IMG/VR virus record: IMGVR_UViG_3300007734_000756
Source of the DNA: an uncultured virus (IMG/VR IMGVR_UViG_3300007734_000756)
Taxonomy: Duplodnaviria; Heunggongvirae; Uroviricota; Caudoviricetes
DNA length: 61,810 nt
Direction: 5' to 3' (one strand)
In this document: one piece after another, positions 4,678 to 57,072 of the stretch
Numbering within the stretch: position 1 is the first letter of the stretch
Layout: the number at the start of each line of letters is the position of its first letter
Notes under the pieces: model-generated
What the model was told of the DNA's origin: nothing
What the model saw: the letters and a program-made list of their open reading frames with translations, nothing else
The model's database searches: none
Translations under genes and position numbers: made by a program

Positions 4678-4913
4678 CTGAATCCTGCCGTTTTCTTAGC
4701 TATGCCTTTTGGCTGCGGCACAAACTGTTTGCCTTTGGCTTTACCTGCTCGTTTTGCTCGCGTCGTTGCTGCATACTCTGCAGGGGACAAAGATTTAATC
4801 GCTGCTTCAGGCAAATATCGCTCACCCGTCTTAGATGACGGTTTACCGGATTTAGTTGTCCAACGTTGTTGGGTCCAATCCTTAAGCGATTGTTGAGGCG
4901 CTTTAATCGCCAT
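4674..4913 (-). CDS. Small basic protein, DUF5872-like
   Basis: Likely start at ATG 4913: MAIKAPQQSLKDWTQQRWTTKSG...ERYLP; family assignment from recall. Confidence 0.65.
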   Translation of the reverse strand: MAIKAPQQSLKDWTQQRWTTKSGKPSSKTGERYLPEAAIKSLSPAEYAATTRAKRAGKAKGKQFVPQPKGIAKKTAGFR

Positions 4914-5427
4914 TACCGTAACTCCCGAATGCCTCAAGGTATTCTATGGCGTTGCGCAAGACTGCAGGGCTATCCTTAAACATTCCAAGCGCACGATTAC
5001 ATTGTTTGCACAAGACCCCACGAAACTCCCCTGTCTCATGGTTATGATCAATTGCGCTGTCCATAAGTGCAACCTCATTTTGGCAAATAGCGCAGCACTC
5101 TTCTTGGCGTTCGTAGCGATCAATCAACTGTTCTGGCGTGATGCCCCGACGAGCACAGCGTTTTGCAAGAGTCCAACTGTCTTTATTGCGGTACTCTCTT
5201 ACACGCTCCGGGTTTTTGACCGTCCAACTCCGGTGTGCTTCATATAAACATTTGTTGCAAGTGCTCCGCAAAAGATGTGCATTGGCCCCGCCGCGACTTC
5301 TAAACAACTTAACTGGCTGCATCGTACAGCACTTCGTGCATAACTTTGAATTCCCGTTAGCAAGCAACTGCGTTTCGCGTTTTTTGGCTTCAGCAGCGCG
5401 ACGTTTTTCGTTGGTTGCGTATGGCAT
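4903..5427 (-). CDS. Endonuclease VII-family (His-Me) free-standing homing endonuclease
   Basis: CAIC...IDHNHETGEFRGVLCKQCNRALG signature plus N-terminal Cys pairs. Confidence 0.85.
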   Translation of the reverse strand: MPYATNEKRRAAEAKKRETQLLANGNSKLCTKCCTMQPVKLFRSRGGANAHLLRSTCNKCLYEAHRSWTVKNPERVREYRNKDSWTLAKRCARRGITPEQLIDRYERQEECCAICQNEVALMDSAIDHNHETGEFRGVLCKQCNRALGMFKDSPAVLRNAIEYLEAFGSYGNGD

Positions 5428-27868: not shown

Positions 27869-28164
27869 TCCCGTACTCGGTACATTTACCGGAGGAGATC
27901 TTCCAGCAACTCAAAGAGGCAGCACAGAACCGCAAAGCTTCGTCTGTGGTGCGTGACGCCATAACCATGTATCTCCAGCGTACAAGTGAGTTCGATACTG
28001 GATATAACAAAGCTATCAATGATGCGATTCGGATAGTCAAATCTAATCCAACTGCCAAGAGTTTGTCTGTCAATGGTTTGCCTGTCAGTTCTCTGTTATG
28101 CGCAGGACTTACCAGTCTTATGAAGGAGACGACCAATGTCCCGAAAAAAACCAGAGGGTCTTAA
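27850..28164 (+). CDS. Ribbon-helix-helix DNA-binding protein
   Basis: YSVHLPEEIFQQLKEAA....SSVVRDAI..YL. Confidence 0.6.
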   Translation: MATKRLIPYSVHLPEEIFQQLKEAAQNRKASSVVRDAITMYLQRTSEFDTGYNKAINDAIRIVKSNPTAKSLSVNGLPVSSLLCAGLTSLMKETTNVPKKTRGS

Positions 28165-28315
28165 CGCGCTGCTGCCCGTCCAGGTTCCGCCTATCGAGGA
28201 GATCACACTGTTGGATTTCTTCGCGGCGTTTGCCGTGATGGGTGGCGCATCTCCTCAAACGGCGTTTGACGTGGCAGAGGGCATGGTTAAAGAGAGAAAG
28301 GAACGGATGAAATGA
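28136..28315 (+). CDS. Hypothetical protein (59 aa)
   Basis: TLLDFFAA.A....A.DVAE.MV.ER motif common in phages; AAGGAG RBS. Confidence 0.6.
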   Translation: MSRKKPEGLNALLPVQVPPIEEITLLDFFAAFAVMGGASPQTAFDVAEGMVKERKERMK

Positions 28316-28485
28316 TTGACTACAGTGAAGGGCACTGGCTACTGAAGACACTGGTTCACGAGATGTATGAAGCTTGTTTGAAGAATGACTACGCCAAAGC
28401 CAAAGAGATTTGCGATCAGATTGTGGTCAATGCTCGCATCACCCGCGCACAGTTAACCATCCAAGAACAAAAGGAACCCAAATGA
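28312..28485 (+). CDS. Hypothetical protein (57 aa)
   Basis: MIDYSEG...; ATGA coupling at both ends. Confidence 0.6.
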   Translation: MIDYSEGHWLLKTLVHEMYEACLKNDYAKAKEICDQIVVNARITRAQLTIQEQKEPK

Positions 28486-28712
28486 AAGAGAAAATCGTAG
28501 AGCGTATCCCGCAGACCGTTTACTGGTTGGATGGGCTGATGCACGTTCCTCATCTGACGCGTAACGATGCATACGTCCGGCCAGGGTATGGCCGGCATGA
28601 TGTGAGGTTCTGGACTAGCCAGCAACTAAAGTTACTTGGAGCAATCGAGGCCAAACATCTTTTGGCGGATCGCAAACTAGATCTGCCTGAGAAACCCAAA
28701 AAGGTGCGCTGA
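28482..28712 (+). CDS. Hypothetical protein
   Basis: MKEKIVERIP...; ATGA coupling. Confidence 0.6.
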   Translation: MKEKIVERIPQTVYWLDGLMHVPHLTRNDAYVRPGYGRHDVRFWTSQQLKLLGAIEAKHLLADRKLDLPEKPKKVR

Positions 28713-28713
28713 C

Positions 28714-29058
28714 ATGTTTGATCCTGTCTACAAGATCGTTTCGTTTTTTGGTACTCCGATGTGTACAGACAAAGCAACGTATGCAGAATGGCATGAAGCG
28801 GCCAGACGCAGTCCACCAGGAGAAGCGGGGTTTTGTACAGACTGCACCCCTGAGTATCAGACTCAAATGATCAAAGAGGGCCGATGCGAAAACCCGTGGA
28901 TCAAATTTGAACTGTATGACGAAGATGATCTAAACCCTCATAAATTCTTAGAGGAAGAAAACATCATCTTCAAACTGAGCGACAAAGGGATTGTTGGGTA
29001 CATTCCAACGGACGTGAAGAAACTAACGCGAGCCCGATTGGGTCGCAGAAAGTTGTAG
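28714..29058 (+). CDS. Hypothetical Cys-containing protein
   Basis: FCTDCTPEYQ..M...RC..P. Confidence 0.65.
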   Translation: MFDPVYKIVSFFGTPMCTDKATYAEWHEAARRSPPGEAGFCTDCTPEYQTQMIKEGRCENPWIKFELYDEDDLNPHKFLEEENIIFKLSDKGIVGYIPTDVKKLTRARLGRRKL

Positions 29059-29067
29059 GAGATCGGA

Positions 29068-29247
29068 ATGTTTGAAACAACTTACGGCACAGATTATGGC
29101 GACCATGACATTCAGCGTCGCATTCTGATTGAGTATCTACAAGTAATGGTGGCGAGAGGCGATTGGCACGGAGTAGCAGATGCAGCAATGGATATCAGAG
29201 AGCTCGAAGCAGAGCATCGAAAAAACAATCGACAGTCTGATCGATGA
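29068..29247 (+). CDS. Hypothetical protein (59 aa)
   Basis: AGGAG RBS; YL......DWHGVADAAMDIRELEA. Confidence 0.6.
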   Translation: MFETTYGTDYGDHDIQRRILIEYLQVMVARGDWHGVADAAMDIRELEAEHRKNNRQSDR

Positions 29248-29406
29248 CTGTAAAGGGATCGTTGATTATTACGTTGACAACATCAAGCTACCGGGGGACG
29301 GCAGGAAGGTTGTGCGAGAAGCGATGTATGCACGGGTTACACGCCTGACGTTCTCTGGGTTTGGGTCAAGGTTGCCGTTTAAGTGGACTGGCGTAAGGAA
29401 GAAAAC

Positions 29407-29628
29407 ATGACACGGGAAGACATCATCAGGATGGCGCGGGAGGCTGGGTTGTCAAACGACTTTGGTCATTTGGGCTACCCATATTTGCCAGAACTTGAAC
29501 GCTTTGCCGCTCTTGTCGCTGCTGCCGAGCGTGAAAGCATAGCCGCATGGGTCGCCTCACAACGAAATGATGTTCCGGCTACTGGTTCAGAAATATCCGC
29601 AGCAATTAGAGCAAGGGGAGAGAAATGA
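29407..29628 (+). CDS. MTREDIIRMAREAG-type modular accessory protein, copy 1
   Basis: Paralogue of the next gene; ends AIRARGEK. Confidence 0.75.
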   Translation: MTREDIIRMAREAGLSNDFGHLGYPYLPELERFAALVAAAERESIAAWVASQRNDVPATGSEISAAIRARGEK

Positions 29629-29873
29629 CTAAGGATGACATCATCAGGATGGCGCGAGAGGCTGGTTTTCCTGTCAGCAAATGGGACGATGGAGTAGATG
29701 AAGTAATGGATGGCGATAACTACCACATTCAAACAGACCTAATTGAACGCTTTGCTGAGCTTGTCGCCGCTGCTGAACGATCTGCGTGTGCGAAGGTGTG
29801 TGATGACTGGCCCAATGGCCGGGACGATGTGTATTTAATCGGCAAAGCGATTAGAGCAAGGGGAGAGAAATGA
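29625..29873 (+). CDS. MTKDDIIRMAREAG-type modular accessory protein, copy 2
   Basis: ERFA.LVAAAER...AIRARGEK. Confidence 0.75.
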   Translation: MTKDDIIRMAREAGFPVSKWDDGVDEVMDGDNYHIQTDLIERFAELVAAAERSACAKVCDDWPNGRDDVYLIGKAIRARGEK

Positions 29874-29992
29874 ACGGAGAGAACTTTTGCTGGCTGATTG
29901 TCGGATTTATTGTCGGTCGTTTGGTTGGAGATTCGGTTAAAGATACTTTACAAAATCTTATAAACAATCTTCGAGGAAGGGGAGAGAAATGA
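29870..29992 (+). CDS. Small membrane peptide (40 aa)
   Basis: MNGENFCWLIVGFIVGRLVG...RGEK; ATGA coupling at both ends. Confidence 0.6.
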   Translation: MNGENFCWLIVGFIVGRLVGDSVKDTLQNLINNLRGRGEK

Positions 29993-30213
29993 GCAAACTA
30001 CAGCCAGTAGCAATCACAGACAAGTACAAAGAAGCCGCAGCGGAGATGCTTTACGAAGCCATCGACGAGAACCCAGACACGGCAATCATTGTCTTGTTCT
30101 GGAAAGATCGTGGGCAATTCAAGATCAAGACAAGTGCTACACAAGACCGACTGCAACTGATCGGTGCGCTGACTGAAGCACTGCACAAAGTTGTTAAGGA
30201 TGGGTACGCATGA
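29989..30213 (+). CDS. Hypothetical protein
   Basis: 74 aa; coupled start and stop. Confidence 0.65.
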   Translation: MSKLQPVAITDKYKEAAAEMLYEAIDENPDTAIIVLFWKDRGQFKIKTSATQDRLQLIGALTEALHKVVKDGYA

Positions 30214-30614
30214 AAAATGTCTATGACCCAGCACGATACGATTTGAACTATGACCCCGCACGATTCGGACGCAACTGGAACGGACATCCTTTCGGAGAGA
30301 AAAACATGATGGAACAAAAACTCGGCGCAATTGCAGGTGGTGACTACAGAAACGCTGGTCAGGATCAGCAGAAAATGAGCAACATCCAAGATCAAATGGG
30401 GCACATGGAAAACCACATCAGTTTTTTGATGAACGCCATTGACACGCTGGAATCCCGTTTGCATATGGTGCTGCGGGACGAACCCGGCAAAGCGGAGTCT
30501 GAAGGTTTAACCAAAACAATGTGCCCGTTAGCCAACGCGCTGCATACGTTTAACCGCCGACTCGACAACGCCAGCAAAAACATCATGAGCGTGATTGATC
30601 GGCTAGAGGTGTGA
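30210..30614 (+). CDS. Hypothetical coiled-coil protein
   Basis: YDPAR duplicated at the N-terminus; helical C-terminus. Confidence 0.65.
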   Translation: MKNVYDPARYDLNYDPARFGRNWNGHPFGEKNMMEQKLGAIAGGDYRNAGQDQQKMSNIQDQMGHMENHISFLMNAIDTLESRLHMVLRDEPGKAESEGLTKTMCPLANALHTFNRRLDNASKNIMSVIDRLEV

Positions 30615-30615
30615 G

Positions 30616-30840
30616 ATGAGCAACGTCATTCCATTTAACGGCATAACACTTCTTGATCTTGACCCAGATCAGGTGCTGGAAGCCAACAAAGGAGCTTTCG
30701 AGGGACTGATATTGATTGGCTTAAACACAGACGGCGAGGAAGTTTTTGCCTCTACTTATGCAGATGGGCCAACCGTTCTGTGGATGCTTGAACGCGCCAA
30801 ACTGCGGTTGCTCAGAATTATTGACGGAGAAGGCGTATGA
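30616..30840 (+). CDS. Conserved small phage protein
   Basis: NVIPF.GIT.LD.DPD.VL...LWMLERAK. Confidence 0.7.
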   Translation: MSNVIPFNGITLLDLDPDQVLEANKGAFEGLILIGLNTDGEEVFASTYADGPTVLWMLERAKLRLLRIIDGEGV

Positions 30841-31046
30841 GTCTTGACGCAATGAAACAGGCGCTAGAGGCGTTGGAAGAAGCGGTGTTTTATACCAGCA
30901 GCGAATCGTGGTCACCTTCTATGACACGGGAATGCGAGGCAGCAATTACCGCTCTCCGCGCTGCAATTCCGCATAGCGAAGACTGCTGGCGGTGGCATCA
31001 CGAATGTGCAGCAATCAGGATGGAGAGGATATTTCATGAGCATTGA
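30837..31046 (+). CDS. Modular accessory protein (MKQALEAL module)
   Basis: N-terminal module shared with 31036 and 31646. Confidence 0.65.
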   Translation: MSLDAMKQALEALEEAVFYTSSESWSPSMTRECEAAITALRAAIPHSEDCWRWHHECAAIRMERIFHEH

Positions 31047-31416
31047 CGCAATGAAACAAGCCTTGGCAGCGCTGAATGACTATGAGCCAAACGAAGCGCA
31101 CAAAGTTGCCACCGCTCTCCGCGCTGCAATCGAGCAGGCGCAGGAGCCGGTGGCGTGGATGTATCACGGCATTCGACACGACGACACGCCACATGAACGC
31201 CCGAGCCTCATCTGGAAACCGGATCAAATGGACGTGATGAGCTTTGAGAAAGGCGCAAAAGCTACCCCGCTCTACACCGCCCCACCACAGCGCAAGCCGC
31301 TGACGGATGAGGAGATTGAGGTTTTGGCAAAAAAGCATAACGGCATTTACTACGATTGCGACATCACATTTGCCCGAGCCATTGAAGCCGCACACGGCAT
31401 AAAGGGGGAAGCATGA
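31036..31416 (+). CDS. Modular accessory protein
   Basis: MKQAL / EPVAW / PLYTAP / LTDEEI / FARAIEA modules. Confidence 0.7.
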   Translation: MSIDAMKQALAALNDYEPNEAHKVATALRAAIEQAQEPVAWMYHGIRHDDTPHERPSLIWKPDQMDVMSFEKGAKATPLYTAPPQRKPLTDEEIEVLAKKHNGIYYDCDITFARAIEAAHGIKGEA

Positions 31417-31649
31417 CCACACACCTGACAAAAATCTGGTGGGACTTGAACAAGCACAAGCTGGTCGAGCAGGCAATACCAGAGGCCGAGATTTACAAGC
31501 GTGAGTGGGTCGGGCTGACGGATGAGGTCATTTGGCTGGAGTACCAACGCTTTTGGCCGTTTCATCCAGCCGAAGAACCAACGCTGGCTAAGGACATTGT
31601 CAAGTTTGCCCGAGCCATCGAAGCCAAGCTGAAGGAGAAGAACACATGA
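31413..31649 (+). CDS. Modular accessory protein
   Basis: WVGLTDE...FARAIEAKLKEKNT. Confidence 0.7.
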   Translation: MTTHLTKIWWDLNKHKLVEQAIPEAEIYKREWVGLTDEVIWLEYQRFWPFHPAEEPTLAKDIVKFARAIEAKLKEKNT

Positions 31650-32077
31650 CTGACCGCGAACTGATGCAGCAGGCGCTGGAGGCGCTGACTGCATATGACG
31701 GGACGAATGGAGCAAGCCAAAGAAAGCGCGTCCTTGCCGCCCTGCGCGAGAGGCTGGCACAGCCAGAGCAGGAGCCAATAGCGTGGGTATACCAAGAAGG
31801 GCTGGAGGCATTGAAAAGCGGCAGGCCGTGGACTGCGTACGGCAGCAATGGGTACAGCCGAATTCCTTTATATCTCAACGACGCAGTAGCTCCAAGGGTA
31901 GAGCCCCGCGCAAGCGGGAGTGGTGCAGGGTTCGAGTCCCTGCCTGCGTCATCGCAATGGAAAGGGTTGACGGATGATGAAATCGTGCTGATTTGCGGTG
32001 AATGCGCTGCGTCTTACGCTGACGATATTCGCTATGCTCGCGCCATCGAAGCCAAGCTACGGGCGAAAAACACATGA
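31646..32077 (+). CDS. Modular accessory protein carrying an in-frame tRNA-like insert
   Basis: MQQALEAL / EPIAW / PLY / [24-aa insert] / WKGLTDDEI / ARAIEAKLRAKNT. Confidence 0.7.
   Translation: MTDRELMQQALEALTAYDGTNGASQRKRVLAALRERLAQPEQEPIAWVYQEGLEALKSGRPWTAYGSNGYSRIPLYLNDAVAPRVEPRASGSGAGFESLPASSQWKGLTDDEIVLICGECAASYADDIRYARAIEAKLRAKNT
31880..31951 (+). ncRNA. tRNA-like cloverleaf lacking an anticodon loop
   Basis: Acceptor GACGCAG/CTGCGTC, T8A9, D stem GCTC/GAGC with GG in the loop, CCCGC-GCAA-GCGGG in place of the anticodon arm, T arm (G)CAGGG-TTCGAGT-CCCTG(C), discriminator A, no encoded CCA. Confidence 0.75.
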
Positions 32078-32262
32078 AATATGAGCAAGCCAAACCGTTA
32101 CTGGACGAACTCTGCCAACTGGCTGTGATGTATCACGCATCTCAGGCGCTAAGAACCAAACTGTTTGATGCGTTAAACAAACACATCCCGCACCTAGATG
32201 AAGGATGCTTTGAAAGAGGGTGCCCAATGATTGAGACGTTTCCGCCAAAGGAAAACACATGA
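32074..32262 (+). CDS. Hypothetical protein
   Basis: 62 aa; AACACATGA joints at both ends. Confidence 0.6.
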   Translation: MKYEQAKPLLDELCQLAVMYHASQALRTKLFDALNKHIPHLDEGCFERGCPMIETFPPKENT

Positions 32263-32426
32263 CAGGGTTCGGGTTGGCCCCAATAAAGATGGAAGGCGGT
32301 ATCGCGGATCCTGACGGGTTCGTTTGGGAGTGCAACTGCGAAGACTGCCAAGTTAGGTATCAAGAGTGGAAGAAGGCGTTTGATATAGAGCAGAAACAAC
32401 TAGAGGAGAGACTAAATGCTAGATGA
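32259..32426 (+). CDS. Small protein (55 aa) with a capsid-like N-terminal peptide
   Basis: MTGFGLAPIKMEGGIADPDGFVWECNCEDC...; ATGA coupling. Confidence 0.55.
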   Translation: MTGFGLAPIKMEGGIADPDGFVWECNCEDCQVRYQEWKKAFDIEQKQLEERLNAR

Positions 32427-32625
32427 CATAGCAATCACAAACCTGGAGCGCGACAAAGCGTGGGCTAGCTTTATCAGGAGGAAATCAGTCAAAGCGTATA
32501 TGAAAGACAAGAAAGACTTTAACTTCCCACTCGACGGGTCTTATGAGGTCTGGTGTATGGCGTGGGAGAAAGCATGGAATTTAGGATTTAAATCCGGGTA
32601 TCACGAACGCAAAGAGTCACTCTAA
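32416..32625 (+). CDS. Hypothetical protein
   Basis: GAGGAG RBS; Trp-rich. Confidence 0.6.
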   Translation: MLDDIAITNLERDKAWASFIRRKSVKAYMKDKKDFNFPLDGSYEVWCMAWEKAWNLGFKSGYHERKESL

Positions 32626-32639
32626 GTAATAGGAAACAA

Positions 32640-33113
32640 ATGGATCCCAAGCTGTTTGAACTGTTGTCAGATTTAACCCTTGCATACCGTCAGGGCGAAA
32701 CAATCGAACCGGAGATAAACCAAATAGAAGAAATGCTGGAGGGAATGCAGAAAAAGAATCCGCTGTCTGACAAAGCTTTGAAAATCTTTGAGCACATTAG
32801 AAAGCTCAAGAAACCTGTGACTGCACACGACATCAGCGTCAGGTTTCATCTAGCTCAATCTACATCTGCCACACATCTGAGGGAATTAAATGCAGCAGGC
32901 TTGCTCACCAAAAGGCGCATCAAAAGCACCACGATCTGGGAAGTCCAAACAACATCCCTGCCCGTGGCCGTTCCCGACAAACGTGTTGAAGCCCGACCCG
33001 TTGAGCTTGATCGGCCTGAAGTCGTTATCCGAAAGTCAGAGCCAATCAAATCAGTCTGGCCGTCGAACCCGTTCCAAACCAGCTACCCTCACGCACGAGG
33101 CTATGATGATTGA
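32640..33113 (+). CDS. Winged-HTH DNA-binding protein
   Basis: PVTAHDISVRFHLAQSTSATHLRELNAAGLL. Confidence 0.65.
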   Translation: MDPKLFELLSDLTLAYRQGETIEPEINQIEEMLEGMQKKNPLSDKALKIFEHIRKLKKPVTAHDISVRFHLAQSTSATHLRELNAAGLLTKRRIKSTTIWEVQTTSLPVAVPDKRVEARPVELDRPEVVIRKSEPIKSVWPSNPFQTSYPHARGYDD

Positions 33114-33128
33114 ACTAGGAGAAGCTAA

Positions 33129-33422
33129 ATGGTAACCCTGGGTGATGTCATTCGAGACAAAATGAAGATCATGGAAATCATGGAAGAAGACCAGAAAGCA
33201 GACGACATTCAAGTCGGCGGCACACACTACAAAGATATGACGGTTCAACCTTGGGAAGTGATGGAGTCTTTGCTGACCCCAGAAGAGTTCCGGGGGTTCC
33301 TAAAAGGCAACATCATCAAGTACGCGATGCGCCAAGGCAGGAAAGATTCAGATGACGCCGGTAAGCTCAGGCACTACCAGCAGAAACTGAAAGAGATAAC
33401 CAGTGAACAATACACTTACTGA
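33129..33422 (+). CDS. DUF3310 / SaV-like protein
   Basis: QVGGTHY....QPWE...GFLKGNIIKY..R.G.K..D..K..HY. Confidence 0.85.
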   Translation: MVTLGDVIRDKMKIMEIMEEDQKADDIQVGGTHYKDMTVQPWEVMESLLTPEEFRGFLKGNIIKYAMRQGRKDSDDAGKLRHYQQKLKEITSEQYTY

Positions 33423-33672
33423 TAAAGAGCGGGAGCACGTCAGACGAGTAAAGGAACTACCTTGCTCCGTCTGCGATGCTCCTGGCCCGAGTGATGCCCA
33501 TCACATTAAACAACACCGGCAATACACCGTGGTGGCTCTCTGTAAAGATTGCCACCAGGGTGCGGTGATGGGCTGGCACGGTCAGCGGAGAATGTGGGCT
33601 ATCAAAAAGATGGACGAGTTAGATGCTCTCAACATCACGATAGCCCGCCTCACTGCTTCATTGACTTCCTAA
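33403..33672 (+). CDS. Ref/DUF968-like HNH Zn-finger nuclease
   Basis: LPCSVC....DAHH.......ALCKDCH.G. Confidence 0.7.
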   Translation: MNNTLTDKEREHVRRVKELPCSVCDAPGPSDAHHIKQHRQYTVVALCKDCHQGAVMGWHGQRRMWAIKKMDELDALNITIARLTASLTS

Positions 33673-36600
33673 CCGATTCTGCATTCTTGGCCAGATCGAT
33701 CAGCAGCAACTTCATCCGATCAATGTTCTCGCGCTTATCCTCTGCGCTCATGGAAGTGTCTTCTGTGTATATCCGGATGTACTGACGAATCTTGGCCATC
33801 TGCTTCGAGGTGTTGTCGTAGAGCTTAGCCAGCGCGACCTTGTCACCCTTCTCTTCCAAGATCGCCTGGACCTTGGCAGAGTCACCAATTGCTGCGTAAT
33901 GCCTCATGTCAGCAAACGCTTCGCTGATACCTTTGGCGTTCTCATAGAAGGACGTGACGTACTCAGACTGCGTGGCCGGCAGTGACTTGATGAACCCGAC
34001 ACTCGCGATGTCCACCCATTTCTCTGACGGGTATGCCCCTTCGTTGAACGGCGACATGGCGTGTTTAGATGCCCAGGCAATCGTTCCACCCAGCCAGCCA
34101 AAGTAAGCTTTGATTGCATACTCCGCCTGGACAGGAGACATCTCAGCTTTGGTAGGCAGGAACAGGTTAGAGATGCCACTGACTGCCATGGCCAACGGGC
34201 TGGTGTTGTCGGTCTTCCGCTCCTCTTTGGACAACCGCTCCATACCCGCGGATTCAATCGGCGCTCCAGTAAAGCTATCCTTGTTGGAGTACAGATCGAC
34301 CAGCGGCTTGAACATTTGCGGCATCGGGTTCAGAGAGAACGTATCCGAGATCATCCGGCGCAGCGTGTTCTCGAACTGCTTACCCTCAGCCTCTTCGTCA
34401 AAGATCTGCTCCGCCACCCGCTCTGCAATCGTTCCAAACGCGCCAATTTCAAACGGTTTCGGGATACGTAGTGCGTACTCCATTCCGGGCAACTTGAACC
34501 ACCAGAAGTTATCCCGATCCCAAGCATCCCGTTTCTTAAACTCTTCGTCATCCTTGCCTGCGAAGTACAAAGCCAGAGAAGCTAAGACCACAGCAGAAGT
34601 CACAGTGGTAAACGCGGTGGCTTTTTTCTTGTCATCCTGTTCAATCGGCTCGCCCGTGACAGTGTTATAGAACACCCGTACGGTCGGGCTAATGCCATCC
34701 CTGCCAAGCTTGTACAGACCTTGGACGCGAGCGTTGAAGAACGGGACAGTCTGAGCCAAGAACCTCACCGCCGGCCACGAGCCCTGCATTGAGAAGTCCA
34801 GCAGATCACGCGCCATGAACGATGCGGTCAAGTGATCCTTTCCTTGCTCGCGAAGCTGGTTGTACAACGCGATCCGGTTAGCCGCCTCGGACTTGTTGCC
34901 CCACTCCTGATACTTGTTCCACGCAGCCAAAAGCTTCTCTGTAACTTGGCCAGGGGAAGTCAAGATGGTGTCAGGATTGACGCCCTGTTTAATCAACCGC
35001 TTCACCAAGCGCGCTTGATCGCCCTCGTAGATCGATCCAAAGTTAAAGATCGCGCCACCAGCCAAGGCCGATAAGAACCGGGGATTGCTCTTGTCAGACC
35101 CCTTCCAACCTTCGTACACGTTGGTTACCGGGTTCCACTTCATATCTCCACCGGCCAGCGCGATTGCCTGGATAGAGTCGCGGAACAAGTTCCTTACCTT
35201 AAACGCAGGGCTCAAGGTCACGCCGTACTGCAGCATGTTCTTGAAGTCTTTCATCACGCTAACGAACTTGGACTGCGGACCCATGTACCCGATAGACGAG
35301 ATGGACTCAAACAGCATCGGATCAATAATCTGAACGTAGGTTGGGATACCCTCGAGCATAATCTTGACCGTGCTCTGAGCACCGTCTCTACGCTCAGTCA
35401 TCCAACCTTGCAGCGATCCATCTCCAACCATTTCTCCAGAAGACCGCAGATATACCTTGCCGTTTTGCCACATGTACTGAACCTTCAGGCTCGGTACCGC
35501 AGCATCCTGAGCAAACGCAGCATTAACTGTTTCAGCAGCAGCACGGTTCTTCATCGACGCAGAAAGGATGTGACTCCAGTTGCGTACGATGTTCTCCATC
35601 AAATCACCAAACGGGCTGGTGCCACCTTTGATGTTGTAAGAGAAGTACTGATTGGGCAGGCCAGATGAATCCATGGCGGCGGACAACATACCGTCTTCCA
35701 TCTCACGATAGAACGGGATGTACCACACGTCATTAGAGAACCGCTCATATCCGACCGGGTTCATCTCGAGATCCAAAACCTTTGCGGCTTTCTGATCATC
35801 AGTCAGATCGGTACGCTGCCAAGTCTTCTCAATCTCACGAGCGGTAGACGTAATCAAACCCTGGGTCATTGCAACGCTCAACACCGATTTGTTCAGTTTG
35901 TTGAGTTCGTTACGGGCTTTCATGTACAACTCAATCCGCGGTGTACCGTTAAGATCACCTTCCGCTAACAACTGACGTTCGTTGATCAGATCCTCGATCC
36001 CTTCGATCTTGGACTGACGACCAGTTTTCATCAGTTGAGCTTCACGATTCAACGCGATCCACATTAAGAATCGATCCACCTCGGGGCCGATAGGCTTCAG
36101 GATGTCCATCATCCCTTGGCTCTTGGGCTTGATGTCTAACGCGCCGTCATTCAGAAATACTTCGCCGTTAAACAGGAGGCCCTCGAGTGCTCCGTCTACC
36201 GTACGAGACATACGCGCCATGATGTATGCGCGTTCGCTGTAATCCTTGATGGTTCGATACTGATCGGCAACACCTTGAGCGACACGCCTCCAGAACCCGT
36301 CTCGCATCCCAGCGATCTTGTCGATGATCGTCGCCCGCTGCGGCGCGTAAATCGGCTGAGCTTTAGCCAGGAACTCTTCTGGCACCCCAACAAACTCTGC
36401 CGGGTTGAGCGGTTTACGTTTCTGCAGGAACTCCTGTGCCGTGTTAATGACCTTCTCACGACTGGGCACCACAGACTGTTTGATGTCGCTCTCAAACAGC
36501 ATCGTATCGGTTTGGAATTCACCGTTACCTTTAGCCAGACTATCTAGCGCGCGGATCACAGTGGCATCAGACGGCAAACCAAACATCGATTTGATCTTCT

Positions 36601-39600
36601 GCACAAACTCTTTGAGCCACTGCTGCAGCCTGGAGATCAGAGAGTCACCGTAGGCAAACCGGTTCTGAACAATTCTTGAACCGTTAACAGCCCAGAACTC
36701 AGACGGGTTGATGTACTGGTAGTAATCCGCCGGTACATCACCGTTCTTGATCATCTCCTTCGCCGTTGCCAGCAACTGATCAGGTGCAACCTCTGGTGAA
36801 CCAAAATGATACTGAGTCAACAACTCAAAGTATTGCTGTTCGCTTTCTGTCGTAGCCCGACGCGCAGCCGCGGTCAATTGCATCAGCCACTCAGTACCGA
36901 TTGCAGACTGAATGTCAGACGGCATCATCCGCTCAAGGTGATGCAGGATCTCGTGAACAGCCGTGTCGGCTTGCTCAACTTGCGGAACTAAACGAATGAT
37001 CTGGTCAATACTGTTGTACTCACCAGCAACACCCGCTTCTGCCTTGGTGCTGATGCTGATACCAAGCTGATCAACCAGCGCCGGATTCTGGCCAATAAAC
37101 CAAAGAGCAAGTTCAACGCCTTTGTCCGACAGCAGACCTTGACGCCGAGCACGGAGTAGACGTTCGCGGATGTAGTCAGCACCGCGTACCCGTTCGCCTG
37201 CTGCAGGTTTCTCAACTTGTGCGGCTTTATCAAGAGCAGTCTTCACGCCCTCGATAAACGCGGTATCACCGATTACGCCATCGGTATGCTGCTTGTTGAG
37301 AAACTTGATGCGACGTTTAGTCTGAACAGGCGCAGCTTTAGTAACCGACTGGATTGGGACAACAGACTGCAGCGGCGGATTGCTGGGCTTGTTCCGAGCA
37401 TCGATGATGTTCTTGGTATTCCGGTCACGTACATCTGCGACCAATTCCAAGTCGTACCCAGAACTACTAAGCACTTTGATAAGCAATTCTGTCGCGTCAG
37501 CCGCCGGAACTGCATTTGCCCGCATCTTATTGCCAGCAGAGGTAAAGGTAATGTTTTTTGTTTGTTTATGAATCTTGCCGCCTGTACCACCCTTACTGAC
37601 TTCAATCGTGTAGTACTGCGGAGTAATAGGATTGCGCTTAAGCTTAAACGTCTCGCCCATGCGCAACTTGTCTACAACCGTACCCCCCAGTTCAGCCAGT
37701 TCCAGAGCAGCCTGGGGTGAAGTAATAGCTGCCGCCTGTTGGGAAACTAATTTCTTGTAATCAAAACCGACCGGCATCAGGAAACCTTGCAGCAGGTTGC
37801 CCTGATTGTCTGTGTAACTAATTAAGTTTCCACCACCTGCAGCTTGTTTGCCGCGGAGCAGATTACCAGTGATGATGTACCGCTTCTCACGAGTCCCAAT
37901 TTGGCCACGGTCGAATGCCTGAGTGATGGGGATATCTTCGATAGAACCATTCTCAGTTGGAACGCCCATCGTTGTTGCGGGGCTCCAAACGATCTTATCT
38001 GCTTGGGCTGTTTCTGCTTCATTAGTGTTGGCTAACTGACTAAGACGCAACGTCATTGTTTGAGCCGCACCATTCACTAGTGCAAACCTGACTTCCCAGT
38101 CACTTAGTGACGCAGCAGACTTTGTACGGCCCTTTTTCTTAACGTCTATTACAACGCCATACAACACACCATCTTTGCTGCTAAGACTCACAATCTCCGA
38201 AATGCGTGGCAAACGTTTACGCACAATACTAATTGCGGCTTCCATCGCCGTGGTTTGCCTGTTGACAATTTCACGTTGCTCATCTGTTGCGTCTTTCGGC
38301 AAAGACTGAATGAGCTTTTGAATTTCTTCATCAACAGCATCTTTAAAACCTTGTGCTTGCTGATTACGCTTCGCTTCGGGCTTAGATCCGTCAAGTCCTT
38401 TAAGTGCTAACTCTCGGACCTGATCAAGCTTCAAAGGTTTGGTCAGTCGTTTAGCATCAACAACCTGAAGTACAACCGGCGCAGTAAACGGACTATCAGT
38501 GCCAGGATCTTGGGGCTGAAGCTCAAACGTTTCCACAACCCGAGCATCCAACTGTTTAACCTGAGCCTCGAGATCGTTCTGACCCAGAGACTCGATCAAC
38601 GCAATTTGATTGTTGTATTCCTCAATCAAGGTTTTGTAGAGCGCAGACTGTTCTGCAAGGGGAAGCAGACCAATGCGGCCCGTCACCTTGGCCATCGCTC
38701 CTTCTATTCTGGGATTCTGATCCTGATCAAACTTAATCGGGAAGCCCAATGTCGCGTTAAGCTCAGACCCTCCAACAACCTCAGCCGCTACACGATCCCC
38801 GTACTTGTTCATAAAGTCCGGCGTCTTCACGTCTTGAGTAGCAGTCTTCCTGCCGGCGGTGGTGTTAGCACTTAGTGCTGCCATCTTGTTAGCCAGCACA
38901 GCGGCTGGGCGAAGCTCGATAGGCACATTTGCCGACAGTTGGATGTAGTACGGCAGGCCAAACGTAGCAGGCTTACCTTCGGGCGAACGACCATCTTCGG
39001 TCACTTGGCCAGTGCGATTAATCCTACCCAGCATCTGAACGTGATTGTTGATGTCTGGCTCAGCCTGCGCCAGGATCATCACGCGCCGACGCTGATCAGC
39101 AAACTTCTCCGACGCATGCATCGACAGGCCAGTAGACCCGGACCTGTTGATGATTAGCGCATCAATCTGACCTTCGTTGAACTTGGAGATAGTGTTCTTT
39201 TTGCCAGCGGTATTGAGTTCTGATCTGTTCCTGGGCGTTAATCTAGCTACCCCGTCTTTAGTCGAAACAACAGTGTTACGACCAGTAATCTCACCAATCG
39301 AATACCCAGCCGCTTCGATACGTTCTTTGATGGCATCAATCGGCGAGATAGGGATGTCTAGTGTCCGGCCCATCGCCCGAATGAAATCTAGCGTATCTTC
39401 ATATGCCGACAGCGCCTCATCGCCAAGCTCATCATCTGTGAGGTAGTGAGGTAACTTGCGACCGTCAGGATAGGAAATCTTAACTGTTCGCACTTTCTCA
39501 AGGTAACGCTCGAGCACATCGGCAAACGATGCCTCAAGTACATTACCTATCTTAATATTGTTAGCTTCGGCAAAATCCTTAATGAACATTTCCATGGTGT

Positions 39601-42600
39601 TGGAAACCGTAATGACTGGTTTCTCACCACGCTGGATAGCAGCAACAGCTAGGTCTGCTGTTTCTTTAGACTTGAGCGCTAACAAGAACGTACCTAGTAC
39701 GTTGTGCATGACGCTAGTAAAGTTCGTGGCTTCGACTTGAGGCGCGGCTACAGAACCGTCCTCCATCACTTCGCCCTGCGTATCTAGATCCGCCTGCAGG
39801 TTGCGAACGGATTTGGCTTTGAGTTCATCAAATGCCACGATGTCGCGCATCGCAGTAGACAGATCTTCTGCTGCAGCCTGATCTACTTCCACTGTCTCGT
39901 TGGTGTATGAAATGCCAGCAAATGATCGTTCGCGGCGCAGATACTGTGTTGCTTTGACCAGCATCGCAGACACAGCTTGCTGCATCGGGATAGACGACAG
40001 GGCATTGATTAGACGATTGGGCTCCCCTGGGAACGCCATGCCGATATCGGTTTTGTTGTACGCATCCAGCACATCAACGTTCTTGGCAAACGTAGCAGAC
40101 GAGTAAAAGACGCTACCAGCTTTGTCGATGTACTCACGAGCGATATTTCCAAGACCCGTAGCTTGATTAACACCAGATCGTTTACCGATGTTATGAGACT
40201 CATCCATGATTAACATGGCGTTCTCATTAATGAATTGATTTAAGAACTCATGCCGGAAGTAAAGCTCTGGCTTTGGGTACCGCATAAGCCCAGCTTCATC
40301 GCGCTTTGGTTTACCAGAACTCTTAGGATTCATCTGGAAATATGACGTAAAGATCACGTCATAGTTGCCCAGTGACTTGTTATCCATTATCTGCTTGAGC
40401 GCAGCCTCATGCCGTTTGTTATCCGGCGTATCAAGAAACTTGCCGCGGCGCTCAGGAATAGAAGCTCGCAATTCAGCAATTTGTTCTTTTAGTTCTTTTA
40501 CTTCTTCATCAGTTGACGAATTAATAAATTTAGTAAGCGCAGTGTCTCGTTCTTGTCCTTCTAGTTTTGTAAATTTTTCGCCTAATTGAATACTTGCAAT
40601 ATCAGCCGCTACTTCACGCACTTCTGTGATGTCGGCCTCAATCTCTTGTTTCTCGCCATACCATTGCAACGCTTCGGCATCTAATGGCACAGACTTGTTG
40701 TTATCCGTCATCAGCGGACGGACATCAGTCATTCCGATGTCATGCAGGTCGCGCATGATGTCGCCATACAAATCTGCCATCTGTGTAACAAACACAGGAA
40801 CCTTCTTGTTCAACATGGCATAGCGGATCATGCCTGCCACAACACGGCCTTTGCCAATACCGGTCTGATCTCCAATGATGAATCCGCGATTAGATTCAAT
40901 GTTGTAGATCGACAGAGCAAGAGCCTCTACCTGCTCAGCAGAGAAAGCTTGTGCAAACTGTTCCGGCGTGTACTGCAGTTTGTTCTGCACGTACTGATCA
41001 ATGTCGCCGACCTTCTCACGCAACTTGGCAAACGCATCTTCAATAGGCGTGAGGTGGTTGGTAGCAACCAGCGTATTGACTGATTTGTTACCAGAGAAGT
41101 TGTTATACGGAACCTGCAGACGCTGTGTCTGCTCTTCCGTCAGTCGTGCTCGAGCCGGCCCCGCAGCAGCGGTTGTATCCACTGGAGCAGGCTCGCTTGG
41201 TTGTACACCTCTTCCGCCTTCGGGTCGTTCTTCTCCAGCACCCTCGGCAGTCCCGGCCCCGGCACCCTCCGCTTCTCCAGTAGGTCTTTCACCACCGGGT
41301 TCTCCGCCAGGAGCAGGAGCGGCACCTCGTCCCTCTCCAGCGGCACCTCCAGCAGGCCCGCTTGGTGCAGCAGGCTCTCCACCTGTTTCAGTTCCCGGTC
41401 GTCTGCCTTCTCCGCCAGCTTCTTCAGCCGCACCTCCAGTTGTAGGCGGTGCTGCTGGGGGTTGAGGCGCAGCCCCTTCGGCCCCTGTATCGCCCCCAGG
41501 AGGCGTCTCTCGTCCCCGGAAGGGCCCCATGTCATTGTTTGTGCCATCCAGAACTCCTCGTAGCTCATCCCAGGTTGTAATCAACCGGGGCAGCGCAGCA
41601 GCAGGCAAGTTGCGTTTAGTTGCATTAGCCTTGCGTCCGTCGATAACAATCATATCAACGGGGTAGGTTGTACCTTGCTTAGCGTATAGATCACCCGCAA
41701 CCGTGAAGTGATCTACAACGTTGTACTCATTGTAGAGTTTGTAGAAAAACTCACGCTTAGACTTGCCCCGATAAGCAGTCCGACGCGAGTCTTCATCCAA
41801 ACGATTTGGTCCGCCGATCAACAGGACAGCACGGCCATCATCCTTCATAGCCGTGAGCGCGTTCAACGCAATCGCGTGATCACGCTGCTTAGTCTCAAAT
41901 CCATCGATGTTATAAGTCTGTTCGCCTTCTCCATACGGAGGGTTAGTCAGTACTACATCTACAGACTTGGGCTGAAATTTCATTGACCCAGCATCTTGCT
42001 GGCTAACTTTGAACCCTTGGGATTCAAGTGCCGCTACTCGGTCAGGATTAATTTCATTGACCGTTGCCTTATCTGCATCGGTAAAAATAAGTAATGCGCC
42101 CTGACCAGCGGTAGGTTCTAAAACTGTGTTGTCAACGTTATCGTAGAGTCCTGATAACTGAATTGCCGCGTGAGCAAGTGGCAACGGTGTGCTGTATGCT
42201 TGATTAGCAATACTGACGCTGTCTCTAACTCCAAGAGTCGGCATCTGCTTGTTATTAAAGTCAACAAGCCGGTTATAAATGTCTTCCGTATATTCTTCTT
42301 TTTCTACCACTTCCCGGCCATACACCACGCCAGCAAGTTCTACAGCCTCGTCTACCAGCTTCGCATCAGGAGTGCCGGGTTCAATCCTACGTCCGAGCAC
42401 ATCACCGGCAGCTCTCCGAGCCTCATTAATGTTGGCAAACCCTTTGCCATCTCGGAAGGTTTGCAGGAACGAATTAGCCAAGCGTACGCGCTCAGGCGCA
42501 GCAGGAGCTTCTGTCTCTGCCAGGATAGCGTCAACGTCTGCAGCTTCGACGGCGGCACTAGAATCCAAACCTTCAAGATCCGCAGCACGGGGATCAAACT

Positions 42601-56122: not shown

Positions 56123-56605
56123 CTACCTCAAGTACATCGCCCGTTCGTCTTTTCTACGTATTACCAGCCCTGGTAGCACTTTACCCGCCGACAGGTTCCA
56201 CTTCAAGAACTCGTCGGCTGCACCCTCAAAGTCGCCTCGGTTGTGCTTGGCTCGAAGGGTAGAAGCCTGAAGATTCCCTAGCCCAACGTTGAAAGCGAAC
56301 GAAGTGAGTGCCAGATGGCGAGGGCTAAGATCATCCACAGTACATAGTCGGCGTACCCCCGCCAGAAACCGCGCCAAATCCTGTTGGAGAATGCTGTCCA
56401 CCTCTTCATCCGTCAGCCTCCGATCCCAACCGGCAGGAACGACGAGGCCAAGTCTTGCATCAAACGGTACGCGCAGGTGAGCAGGATCGATGACGTGACC
56501 AACACCGACAGTCCAAAGACGAGCAGGGCAACGGTAAGGCTCATGCTTAACCCCTTCATGATGACGCAGCATCTTTAGCAGATCTTTCACTTCTTTGCTT
56601 TGCAA
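56123..56605 (-). CDS. Endolysin, GH24 lysozyme
   Basis: HEG...PY.C....WTVGVGH; SFAFNVG.GN; F.KW...GKVLPGL..RR..E. Confidence 0.92.
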   Translation of the reverse strand: MQSKEVKDLLKMLRHHEGVKHEPYRCPARLWTVGVGHVIDPAHLRVPFDARLGLVVPAGWDRRLTDEEVDSILQQDLARFLAGVRRLCTVDDLSPRHLALTSFAFNVGLGNLQASTLRAKHNRGDFEGAADEFLKWNLSAGKVLPGLVIRRKDERAMYLR

Positions 56606-57072
56606 CCATTAAAGTGATACCGCCGCATGTTGCCACCGCCGCCTTCAAGCCCGCAATGCGGACACTTCACAATATGACGCTTACCTTTACACGCCTCGCT
56701 GAGCCGCGTCGTAAACTCTGGGTCTGCTAATCGCTTGGCCGCGCCCTGAAGGTATGGTTCGCGCTGACGCTTAATTCCAGTCGCCCCATCCACGCTCGGA
56801 GCCTTGTTGTAAAGCATATCCAACCCTTGCCGCAACAACTCAGCTTCTATGGCACGCGCCTCTTCAACCGTCCCGGTTTCCTTGATGACAACAAACTCAA
56901 ACCCGGATATGCCGTATTTTTGGGCGTCTTCTGCGTAGCCTTCGTAATGCCGAAACTTGGCGCAATTGATGGCGCATCGGTGATTCCGCAGCCGAAGCTC
57001 TATCTGGCTAGAGCTTCCTATGTATCGCTTACCGTTGTGCTTGTTGACAACGGCATAGACCCCGACAGTCAT
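56587..57072 (-). CDS. GIY-YIG free-standing homing endonuclease
   Basis: GVYAVVN..NGKRYIGSS..I..R...H; E; LYN; C-terminal CPHC...MRRYHF..C. Confidence 0.88.
   Translation of the reverse strand: MTVGVYAVVNKHNGKRYIGSSSQIELRLRNHRCAINCAKFRHYEGYAEDAQKYGISGFEFVVIKETGTVEEARAIEAELLRQGLDMLYNKAPSVDGATGIKRQREPYLQGAAKRLADPEFTTRLSEACKGKRHIVKCPHCGLEGGGGNMRRYHFNGCKAKK

Follow-up and report, generated by a model that had tools for sequence, protein, structure and literature searches.

We describe a tRNA-derived, anticodon-less element written in frame inside a protein-coding gene of an uncultured tailed virus (Duplodnaviria; Heunggongvirae; Uroviricota; Caudoviricetes; IMG/VR record IMGVR_UViG_3300007734_000756), the entire 61,810-nucleotide (nt) stretch of which was analyzed and is referred to here as the window. 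The element spans positions 31880-31951 of the + strand, within the open reading frame (ORF) at 31646-32077, and comparison with its relatives shows that these 72 nt are a tRNA-derived RNA structure maintained by selection within protein-coding sequence. The acceptor stem, D arm, elbow, and T arm are near-frozen in their letters, while the capped hairpin standing in place of the anticodon arm is free in sequence and keeps its pairing; the constraint acts on the nucleotides, i.e., on RNA, and not on the protein. A phage can evidently carry a structured, selected tRNA-like RNA in frame within protein-coding sequence. The element is real, conserved, and unusual, and the mechanism that we propose for it, recognition by the tRNA end-processing enzymes of the host, is plausible as judged from sequence and fold.

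Fold, tRNA ancestry, and selection on the RNA

An earlier note on this DNA had described at this place a cloverleaf with a 7-bp acceptor stem, U8-A9, a D arm with GG, the T loop TTCGAGT, a GCAA loop instead of an anticodon loop, a sixth T-stem pair, and no encoded CCA, in a frame that stays open throughout the element, and every one of these features is present. We found 22 distinct 72-nt variants of the element in 23 gene contexts on viral and metagenome contigs, and the window copy is laid out as follows:

31880..31951, + strand: anticodon-less tRNA-like element, 72 nt or 24 codons in frame, assigned from its cloverleaf fold and covariance
31880..31886, + strand: 5' strand of the acceptor stem, 7 bp with 31944-31950; standard pairs in 22 of 22 variants
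31887-31888, + strand: U8-A9
31889..31904, + strand: D arm, 4 bp (31889-31892 with 31901-31904), 8-nt loop including GG
31905..31918, + strand: capped hairpin of 5 bp and a GCAA tetraloop, directly after the D stem, replacing the 17-nt anticodon arm
31919..31924, + strand: variable region, 6 nt (AGUGGU), unpaired
31925..31943, + strand: T arm, 6 bp (31925-31930 with 31938-31943), loop UUCGAGU
31944..31951, + strand: 3' strand of the acceptor stem and discriminator, with an unpaired A at 31951 followed by TCG, not CCA

The minimum free energy of the element predicted by RNAfold is -37.2 kcal/mol, compared with -25.2 +/- 3.1 kcal/mol for 200 dinucleotide shuffles (z = -3.88), none of which (0/200) folded as well. 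Because the detectors disagree about this sequence, with a match to the tRNA model on a slice of the window and none from ARAGORN, we conclude that the element is tRNA-derived, yet no tRNA. The Rfam tRNA model RF00005 matched a 93-nt slice at 32.9 bits (gathering threshold 29, E = 7.5e-6) over model positions 1-71, with the anticodon arm skipped and one G-C pair aligned as inserted within a 5-bp T stem; the version of the element in the divergent locus L120 scored 35 bits with the same model. ARAGORN reported no tRNA and no transfer-messenger RNA (tmRNA) in the whole window, a whole-window Rfam scan at gathering thresholds returned zero matches, and a 1-kb Rfam scan listed mascRNA-menRNA alone, at 23.3 bits and thus below its gathering threshold of 42.5, with RF00005 absent from the list. 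The element belongs to neither the tmRNAs, as judged by the ARAGORN tmRNA search, nor the Y RNAs, as judged by the Rfam Y-RNA models (12.4 bits with Deinococcus_Y_RNA against a threshold of 80). A comparison with tRNA, tmRNA, and Y RNA models had been suggested in the earlier note; the tRNA match bears out its idea of a captured tRNA-derived element as far as origin is concerned. A covariance model of our own (R1) scored the window element at 103.1 bits and found no other copy in the window.

The element passes the tRNA model, but where a tRNA has a 7-nt anticodon loop it has a 4-nt loop, in 22 of 22 variants, and its acceptor and T stems stack to 7+6 = 13 bp instead of the canonical 7/5, whereas the acceptor branch of a canonical tRNA has 12 bp (PMC5389517, in part). 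Lacking an anticodon loop and having a 13-bp acceptor branch, it is not a functional tRNA: decoding is excluded, and in the functional sense the element stands outside the tRNA family. Annotation pipelines will miss such elements twice, since tRNA finders reject them and gene callers report the ORF alone.

Selection on the fold is evident from the alignment of the 22 variants. Standard pairing is kept in 99.4% of the 484 cells (22 variants x 22 base pairs), and compensatory changes occur in 9 of the 22 pairs, namely, in 3 acceptor pairs (found in L120 and in a second divergent locus, L134), in 4 of the 5 hairpin pairs, and in 2 of the 6 T-stem pairs. None of 500 shuffles reached the observed pairing and compensation values, partners slid by 1 to 3 columns as a control were paired in 36-49% of cells, and RNAalifold independently predicted the same cloverleaf from the variants. 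G-U cells (10) outnumber A-C cells (2), which points to RNA of the + strand as the selected molecule. The hairpin always consists of 5 bp and 4 nt, with 14 loop sequences among the 22 variants (GNRA in 7 variants, UNCG in 4) and a mismatched closing pair in three, whereas A73 is present in all 22. The D stem is invariant in the alignment (A2), although the invariance of the D arm, variable region, and much of the T arm is partly one of construction, because search patterns fixed these columns; the same regions are unchanged also in loci that were found via other parts of the element (an exact 30-mer and a 5'-part pattern). The earlier note had argued from its intact stems that the element was no product of random decay, a view that would have fallen if homologues or covariation were lacking, and had called for homologues in phage contigs. 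Such homologues exist, as 22 variants with covarying stems and always a 4-nt loop, and we therefore regard the element as a maintained tRNA-derived element and not as a decaying pseudo-tRNA.

That the constraint lies on nucleotides is seen most directly in two sets of sequences sharing an upstream module (group A, n = 9; group B, n = 6). Third codon positions free of the search patterns were variable in 0/9 columns (A) and 1/9 columns (B) within the element, compared with 10/20 and 13/20 over the 60 nt preceding it (Fisher p = 0.011 and 0.014, respectively). The hairpin behaves in the opposite manner, with 10/14 (A) and 11/14 (B) of its columns variable, and the residues it encodes change radically (PRASG, PPAAE, PRFGG, PRLGG, and others) while pairing is kept. 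The hairpin (31905-31918; A2 columns 26-39) is at least as variable as the flanking synonymous sites (10/14 versus 10/20), for which the candidate explanations are old alleles shuffled by recombination or diversifying selection.

Insertion polymorphism, gene contexts, and relatives

Protein comparisons show that the element is an exact 24-codon insertion, placed in the flexible linker of a small phage protein of modular build, and that the protein dispenses with the insert. Of 1236 homologues, the best 120 divide into 70 with the 24 residues and 50 without, and the alignment has a clean 24-column gap at the insert. Two homologues (P0023 and P0074; ...RIPLYLN-AQWQGLTDEEI...) have the same flanks as the window protein with the 24 residues absent, and two others (P0034 and P0090) retain remnants, comprising the first five or the last nine residues only. 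The empty junction was compared at the protein level, a degenerate junction pattern for the empty-site DNA having given 0 matches. As the earlier note had observed, a paralogue in the window reads ...PLYTAPPQRKPLTDEEI... at the matching place. The coding features concerned are:

31646..32077, + strand: host ORF of the element, 143 aa, with an N-terminal module, the 24-aa insert (residues 79-102), and a C-terminal LTDDEI...AIEAKLRAKNT module
31036..31416, + strand: paralogue without the element (PLY-TAPPQRK-PLTDEEI)
29383..33672, + strand: run of small ORFs downstream of exonuclease/Erf/SSB genes, mostly with 4-nt stop/start overlaps

An AlphaFold2 model of the host protein (32 sequences, mean predicted local distance difference test [pLDDT] score 71) places the insert between two folded modules, with residues 82-97 scoring below 50 in pLDDT and residues 76-109 devoid of secondary structure, so that the encoded 24-aa peptide is predicted to be a disordered linker. 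Pfam searches of the host ORF and its neighbors gave no family, and the only library match of the host ORF was a weak one to a PHROG of unknown function. The small ORFs at 29383-32625 (+) of the window belong, with P0001-P0120, to a very large family of mosaic proteins (1236 matches) built of interchangeable modules: a MTDRELMQQALEAL head, EPVAW...PLY, a Cys-rich CAGRNCGSTNPNLHSAECFEDYEK module, and an LTDEEI...AIEAKLKEKN tail.

The element lies in frame within an ORF, and in the same frame, in 23 of 23 contexts. At least four unrelated modules precede it (...WTAYG...PLYLN; ...DPQWKDDPELC...GYEAGYN; ...ESDA..F...FN; and a short MTHMKSN), it is followed either by LTDEEI-type modules or by tails of 8-10 residues ending at the start of the next gene, and its place within genes varies from mid-gene to near the 5' end to 3' ends. 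Its borders are sharp: upstream, 10-14 of the 24 segments agree on the commonest base, from position +1 onward 21-24 do, and the only flanking letters common across contexts are AAY before the element and CC after it. The three nucleotides after the discriminator in the 24 distinct segments are CCT (10), CCA (6), CCC (2), or another triplet (6), and upstream an A stands at -2 in 22/24 and a pyrimidine at -1 in 23/24, with U at -1 in 10/24. AAY directly before the element (window 31877-31879) occurs in 18/24 segments despite the unrelated upstream modules, and is either part of the functional unit, as a leader, or a trace of cassette movement. Neither target duplications at the element junctions nor terminal repeats were seen. 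Frame 1 of the element contains two TAG stops, frame 2 is open and would give a basic, Cys-containing peptide, and frame 0 is rich in Pro, Gly, Ser, and Ala, so selection for a harmless linker can explain the constant frame, which is not significant on its own because just four upstream families are independent.

Relatives were recovered from viral and metagenome contigs by several routes. The exact 30-mer of the T arm and acceptor 3' strand is present in 11 IMG/VR contigs; the 5'-part pattern found 16 loci, i.e., 15 family members plus an odd sequence, tRNA-like, from a cluster of tRNA genes in a jumbo phage; and an architecture pattern, with the acceptor stem left free and the D arm, a gap of 14 nt, the variable region, and the T arm prescribed, found 16 viral loci and 20 metagenome contigs. 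The architecture pattern had 0 matches in one genome each of 185,579 species, among which the T-arm plus acceptor pattern hit five tRNA-Lys(UUU) genes and one non-tRNA site and yielded no host candidate. No GenBank phage record carries the element: no match extended over more than 42% of the 72 nt and most lay in tRNA T arms, 0/17 records covered 80% of it, and a 1-kb query matched two GenBank phage records, in another part only. Of the 80 loci retrieved via the host protein, 5 have the element and 75 are without it, which is thus missing from most relatives of the protein, and the window, G002, and G003 hold one copy per genome. A 1109-nt contig from an RNA library matches the window only over 31880-31951, which documents the module in other flanks, not its transcription. 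Eight runs were found, all stored as assembled contigs, and those of the four that were compared with the element have no ends or joints there, although contigs cannot show RNA ends.

Two divergent lineages keep the fold in other surroundings. Loci L120, L129, and L133 have an in-frame TGA in the hairpin loop, an unrelated hairpin sequence, and two compensated acceptor pairs, and their discriminator is followed by CCA and a terminator hairpin; in L120 and L129 a tyrosine integrase gene (PF00589, 45-47 bits) lies 140 nt further on and a PrtN-type gene lies upstream. The full order in L120 (2498-4556; record G002) is a PrtN-type gene, a 121-aa ORF, the element, CCA, the terminator hairpin, and the tyrosine integrase gene. 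This arrangement resembles a genuine tRNA gene's 3' end lying beside int, and may show the family's origin or a separate use as an attachment (att) site. Locus L134 has the same fold with other stems in an AT-rich genome, where the element stands at the end of a 76-aa ORF, one codon short of the stop, and the N-terminal part of that ORF resembles the L120 ORF; the upstream domain of the L134/L120 type had no Atlas match at or above 0.9 and no Pfam match.

Other tRNA-like sequences were met in the same searches. The odd sequence in the jumbo-phage cluster (L017, 3001-3075), uncalled among the nine tRNAs called there, has its 5' half in common with the element, an 'anticodon' loop of 6 nt, and an acceptor 3' strand that matches poorly. 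A further 22 distinct and unrelated phage sequences (among loci L192-L234) have tRNA-like bodies with loops of 3-6 nt in place of the anticodon loop, for example, 6 bp and UGGA in L215 or GAAA in L216; for 20 of the 22 the surrounding open stretch is short, not a long ORF, and L228 may lie in an open frame of about 795 nt.

The phage itself is represented by a nearly identical virus record of 61,829 bp (G001), estimated to be 98% complete. Its genes include those for terminase, portal, major head proteins, primase, helicase, and a ParB-like protein, together with a 3882-aa ORF, and an exonuclease/Erf/SSB recombination set lies just upstream of the + strand run of small ORFs that holds the element. 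A tRNA-model search at genome scale found no tRNA gene in G001 or G003. Scans of 28000-34000 detected no promoter, nor a terminator beside the element, though the same terminator scan also missed the L120 hairpin that folding revealed. The 3882-aa ORF (window 33650-45298, -) shows by eye NPPY-type methyltransferase and DExH-type helicase motifs, along with long Pro/Ala/Gly-rich spacers, and is probably a giant virion or injected protein. A GIY-YIG endonuclease gene (PF01541, 44.9 bits; 56587-57069, -) beside a lysozyme gene and an endonuclease VII-like gene (4903-5427, -) possibly encode homing or recombination nucleases, neither of them linked to the element.

Candidate functions of the element

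We tentatively propose that the element is a non-decoding module of tRNA descent recognized by the tRNA end-processing enzymes of the host, in the manner of the t-elements of plant mitochondria. In the early polycistronic transcript the module would fold into a tRNA L-shape unable to decode, host RNase P would cut before G+1, and 3' trimming and CCA completion would take place after A73. The cut would sever the message at the element and release a tRNA-like RNA of 72-75 nt, as happens with t-elements and mascRNA, and such a released RNA could also act as a decoy. The element would have come to lie inside an ORF because the operon, whose ORFs mostly overlap by 4 nt, has almost no noncoding space, and would use frame 0 because that frame supplies a harmless linker rich in Pro, Gly, Ser, and Ala, whereas two TAG stops interrupt frame 1. 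Among the three functions that the earlier note had offered (a decoy, a processing signal, or a captured element), a signal for RNase P and RNase Z would best fit the conserved anatomy. The determinants of RNase P are kept in all 22 variants (7-bp acceptor stem, canonical T loop, D-loop GG, and A73), CC follows A73 in 18/24 segments, A(-2) is present in 22/24, and position -1 is a pyrimidine in 23/24; bacterial RNase P makes contacts through RCCA-L15, U(-1), and A(-2) (PMC4919922, in part).

Several observations weigh against processing. U(-1) is found in only 10/24 segments, an efficient cut would destroy the message of the host ORF and leave a non-stop mRNA, and translating ribosomes would unfold the structure. 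The element begins 7 codons after a possible start codon in locus L138, a stop codon lies inside it in L120, and many of the invariant columns were preset by search patterns that fixed the D arm, the variable region, and much of the T arm. RNase P requires neither a D arm nor an anticodon stem, and here both the D arm and the length of the hairpin are kept exactly, beyond the needs of the enzyme, so a reader of the whole L-shape may be the real partner. Bacterial RNase P does handle 13-bp branches such as that of tRNA-Sec. The departure of the 13-bp acceptor/T stack from the canonical 12 bp (PMC5389517, in part) is a further point on this side. A combined scheme may also be considered, although we find it doubtful: translated copies would serve as a disordered linker, while untranslated copies would fold and be excised by RNase P and RNase Z, coupling the fate of the early message to translation, and the released body would titrate a host factor that attacks or binds tRNA, with the hairpin as the trace of an arms race. 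If host tRNA enzymes do process the element, it would be the bacterial-virus counterpart of organellar t-elements and mascRNA, and a compact punctuation for operons without intergenic space. The family offers natural experimental controls in its empty-site alleles, remnants, and compensated hairpin variants.

A decoy or sponge is a rather unlikely alternative. Here a host protein that reads the tRNA body, for example a defense nuclease or a modifier that targets tRNA, or else a factor that binds it, would be bound by the tRNA-shaped RNA, whether set free or still part of the mRNA; because its loop is sealed, this RNA would be uncuttable at the anticodon and useless to the ribosome. This would account for the conservation of the whole L-shape, with its D arm and anticodon-stem length, beyond what end processing needs, for a hairpin at least as variable as synonymous sites (10/14 versus 10/20 in group A), as an arms race could produce, and for the accessory nature of the element, which we conclude from its absence in close relatives. 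The body, moreover, resembles tRNA-Lys, a classic target of anticodon nucleases, and the five tRNA-Lys(UUU) genes are the only real tRNAs in the species genomes that share the T-arm and acceptor pattern; that likeness, however, depends on a pattern of our own choosing and on generic arms. One copy per genome, embedded in an mRNA, would be a weak sponge dose, and no linked defense or anti-defense gene and no partner was identified. A decoy of this kind would be a new form of tRNA-based counter-defense. Alternatively, and in our judgment unlikely, the 72 bp may be a selfish or neutral DNA cassette of tRNA descent, spread by recombination among modular phage genes as portable homology between modules and tolerated as a harmless linker with no RNA function of its own. 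Presence/absence polymorphism, exact boundaries, and partial remnants are what such a cassette would leave, as are 23 contexts with at least four unrelated upstream and many downstream modules, near-identical sequence between unrelated flanks with the jump from 10-14/24 to 21-24/24 at +1, and the exonuclease/Erf/SSB set just upstream; in-frame palindromic elements are, moreover, known in Rickettsia (PMC10969869, in part). Against it, compensatory changes in three helices and the asymmetry of G-U over A-C require that a folded + strand be under selection, the loops have kept their tRNA-specific nucleotides, the element is single copy with no terminal repeats or target duplications seen, and the fold persists, built from different stems, in genomes as unlike as those of the L120 type and the AT-rich L134.

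A structure that acts in cis without being cut, either as a ribosome-pausing roadblock between two protein modules or as an mRNA stabilizer, would suit the very stable fold (-37 kcal/mol), its place exactly at the intermodule linker, and the position of the L120 type at a transcript 3' end beside a terminator. We regard it as very unlikely, given that a pause or stabilizer needs no tRNA-specific loops or elbow, that no slippery heptamer was seen upstream (by eye only), and that the element occurs mid-gene, near the 5' end, and at 3' ends alike. Programmed frameshifting was considered and rejected, as inspection by eye found no slippery heptamer upstream. The L120 and L129 arrangement, with CCA, a terminator hairpin, and a tyrosine integrase gene after the element and a PrtN-type gene before it, raises the further idea that the element is, or descends from, the phage attachment site (attP) of a temperate phage integrating into a tRNA gene. 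For the phage of the window this is highly improbable: the near-complete G001 (98%) and G003 (99%) hold no tyrosine or serine recombinase (PF00589, PF00239), the architecture pattern had 0 matches in the species genomes, where no tRNA ending in this 3' sequence, extra C included, was found either, an att site would not call for covarying 5' and 3' acceptor strands, and G002 has no second partial copy. With no recombinase in G001 and an adjacent integrase in the L120 type only, attP was rejected for the window's phage.

Comparison with known systems

In the portions of the literature available to us, we found no phage gene described as carrying an anticodon-less, tRNA-like element in frame; a 2023 survey of viral structured RNAs speaks of tRNA-like candidates in general terms only in the part seen, and its supplementary tables might hold the motif. 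The in-frame position in 23/23 contexts, the insertion/deletion polymorphism, and a capped hairpin of free sequence beside a near-frozen body are new. The skipping-rope, DUF2693-FD, and salivarius-1 RNAs, as partly described in a 2026 preprint, were considered as relatives and rejected for their different connectivity. Canonical tRNAs (RF00005), including those of phages, share a common origin and fold with the element, which differs from them in having no 7-nt anticodon loop and no position 26, in its 6-bp T stem, and in being translated within an ORF. The 22 short-loop phage sequences likewise combine a tRNA body with a short closed loop, but belong to other sequence families.

The mascRNA/menRNA family (RF01684) offers a tRNA-like fold with a reduced anticodon arm inside a long transcript, its acceptor and T arms align with those of the element, and mascRNA is processed by RNase P and RNase Z (PMC4919922, in part). 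These RNAs are eukaryotic and noncoding, however, and with 23.3 bits against a threshold of 42.5 homology is not implied. Rickettsia palindromic elements (RPEs; PMC10969869, in part) are, like the phage element, short, structured, in frame, and tolerated by the protein, but they measure about 150 bp, are numerous in each genome, and have no likeness to tRNA, whereas the phage element is single copy and has a tRNA fold. It does not show the many copies, terminal inverted repeats, and target duplications of mobile elements of the RPE or miniature inverted-repeat transposable element (MITE) type.

The closest parallel is found in the t-elements of Arabidopsis mitochondria, which form the 3' ends of nad6 and ccmC mRNAs inside the reading frame and which RNase P and RNase Z excise as stable RNAs bearing a nonencoded C or CA (Forner et al. 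2007; PMC1920247, in part). The T-arm motif given there, GGTTCRANYCC, is matched by GGTTCGAGTCC at 31929-31939 within ORF 31646-32077. Both are non-decoding tRNA-like cloverleaves with a conserved T arm inside longer transcripts. As far as that source goes, t-elements are organellar, meet other host enzymes, and have degenerate other arms, whereas the phage element keeps all four helices, carries a neat hairpin of 5 bp and a tetraloop, and usually lies in an ORF that continues into a further module; its cleavage is, for the phage, a proposal drawn from the letters and the predicted fold. By analogy, the element would work most like a t-element, and its tolerance in frame recalls the palindromic elements of Rickettsia.

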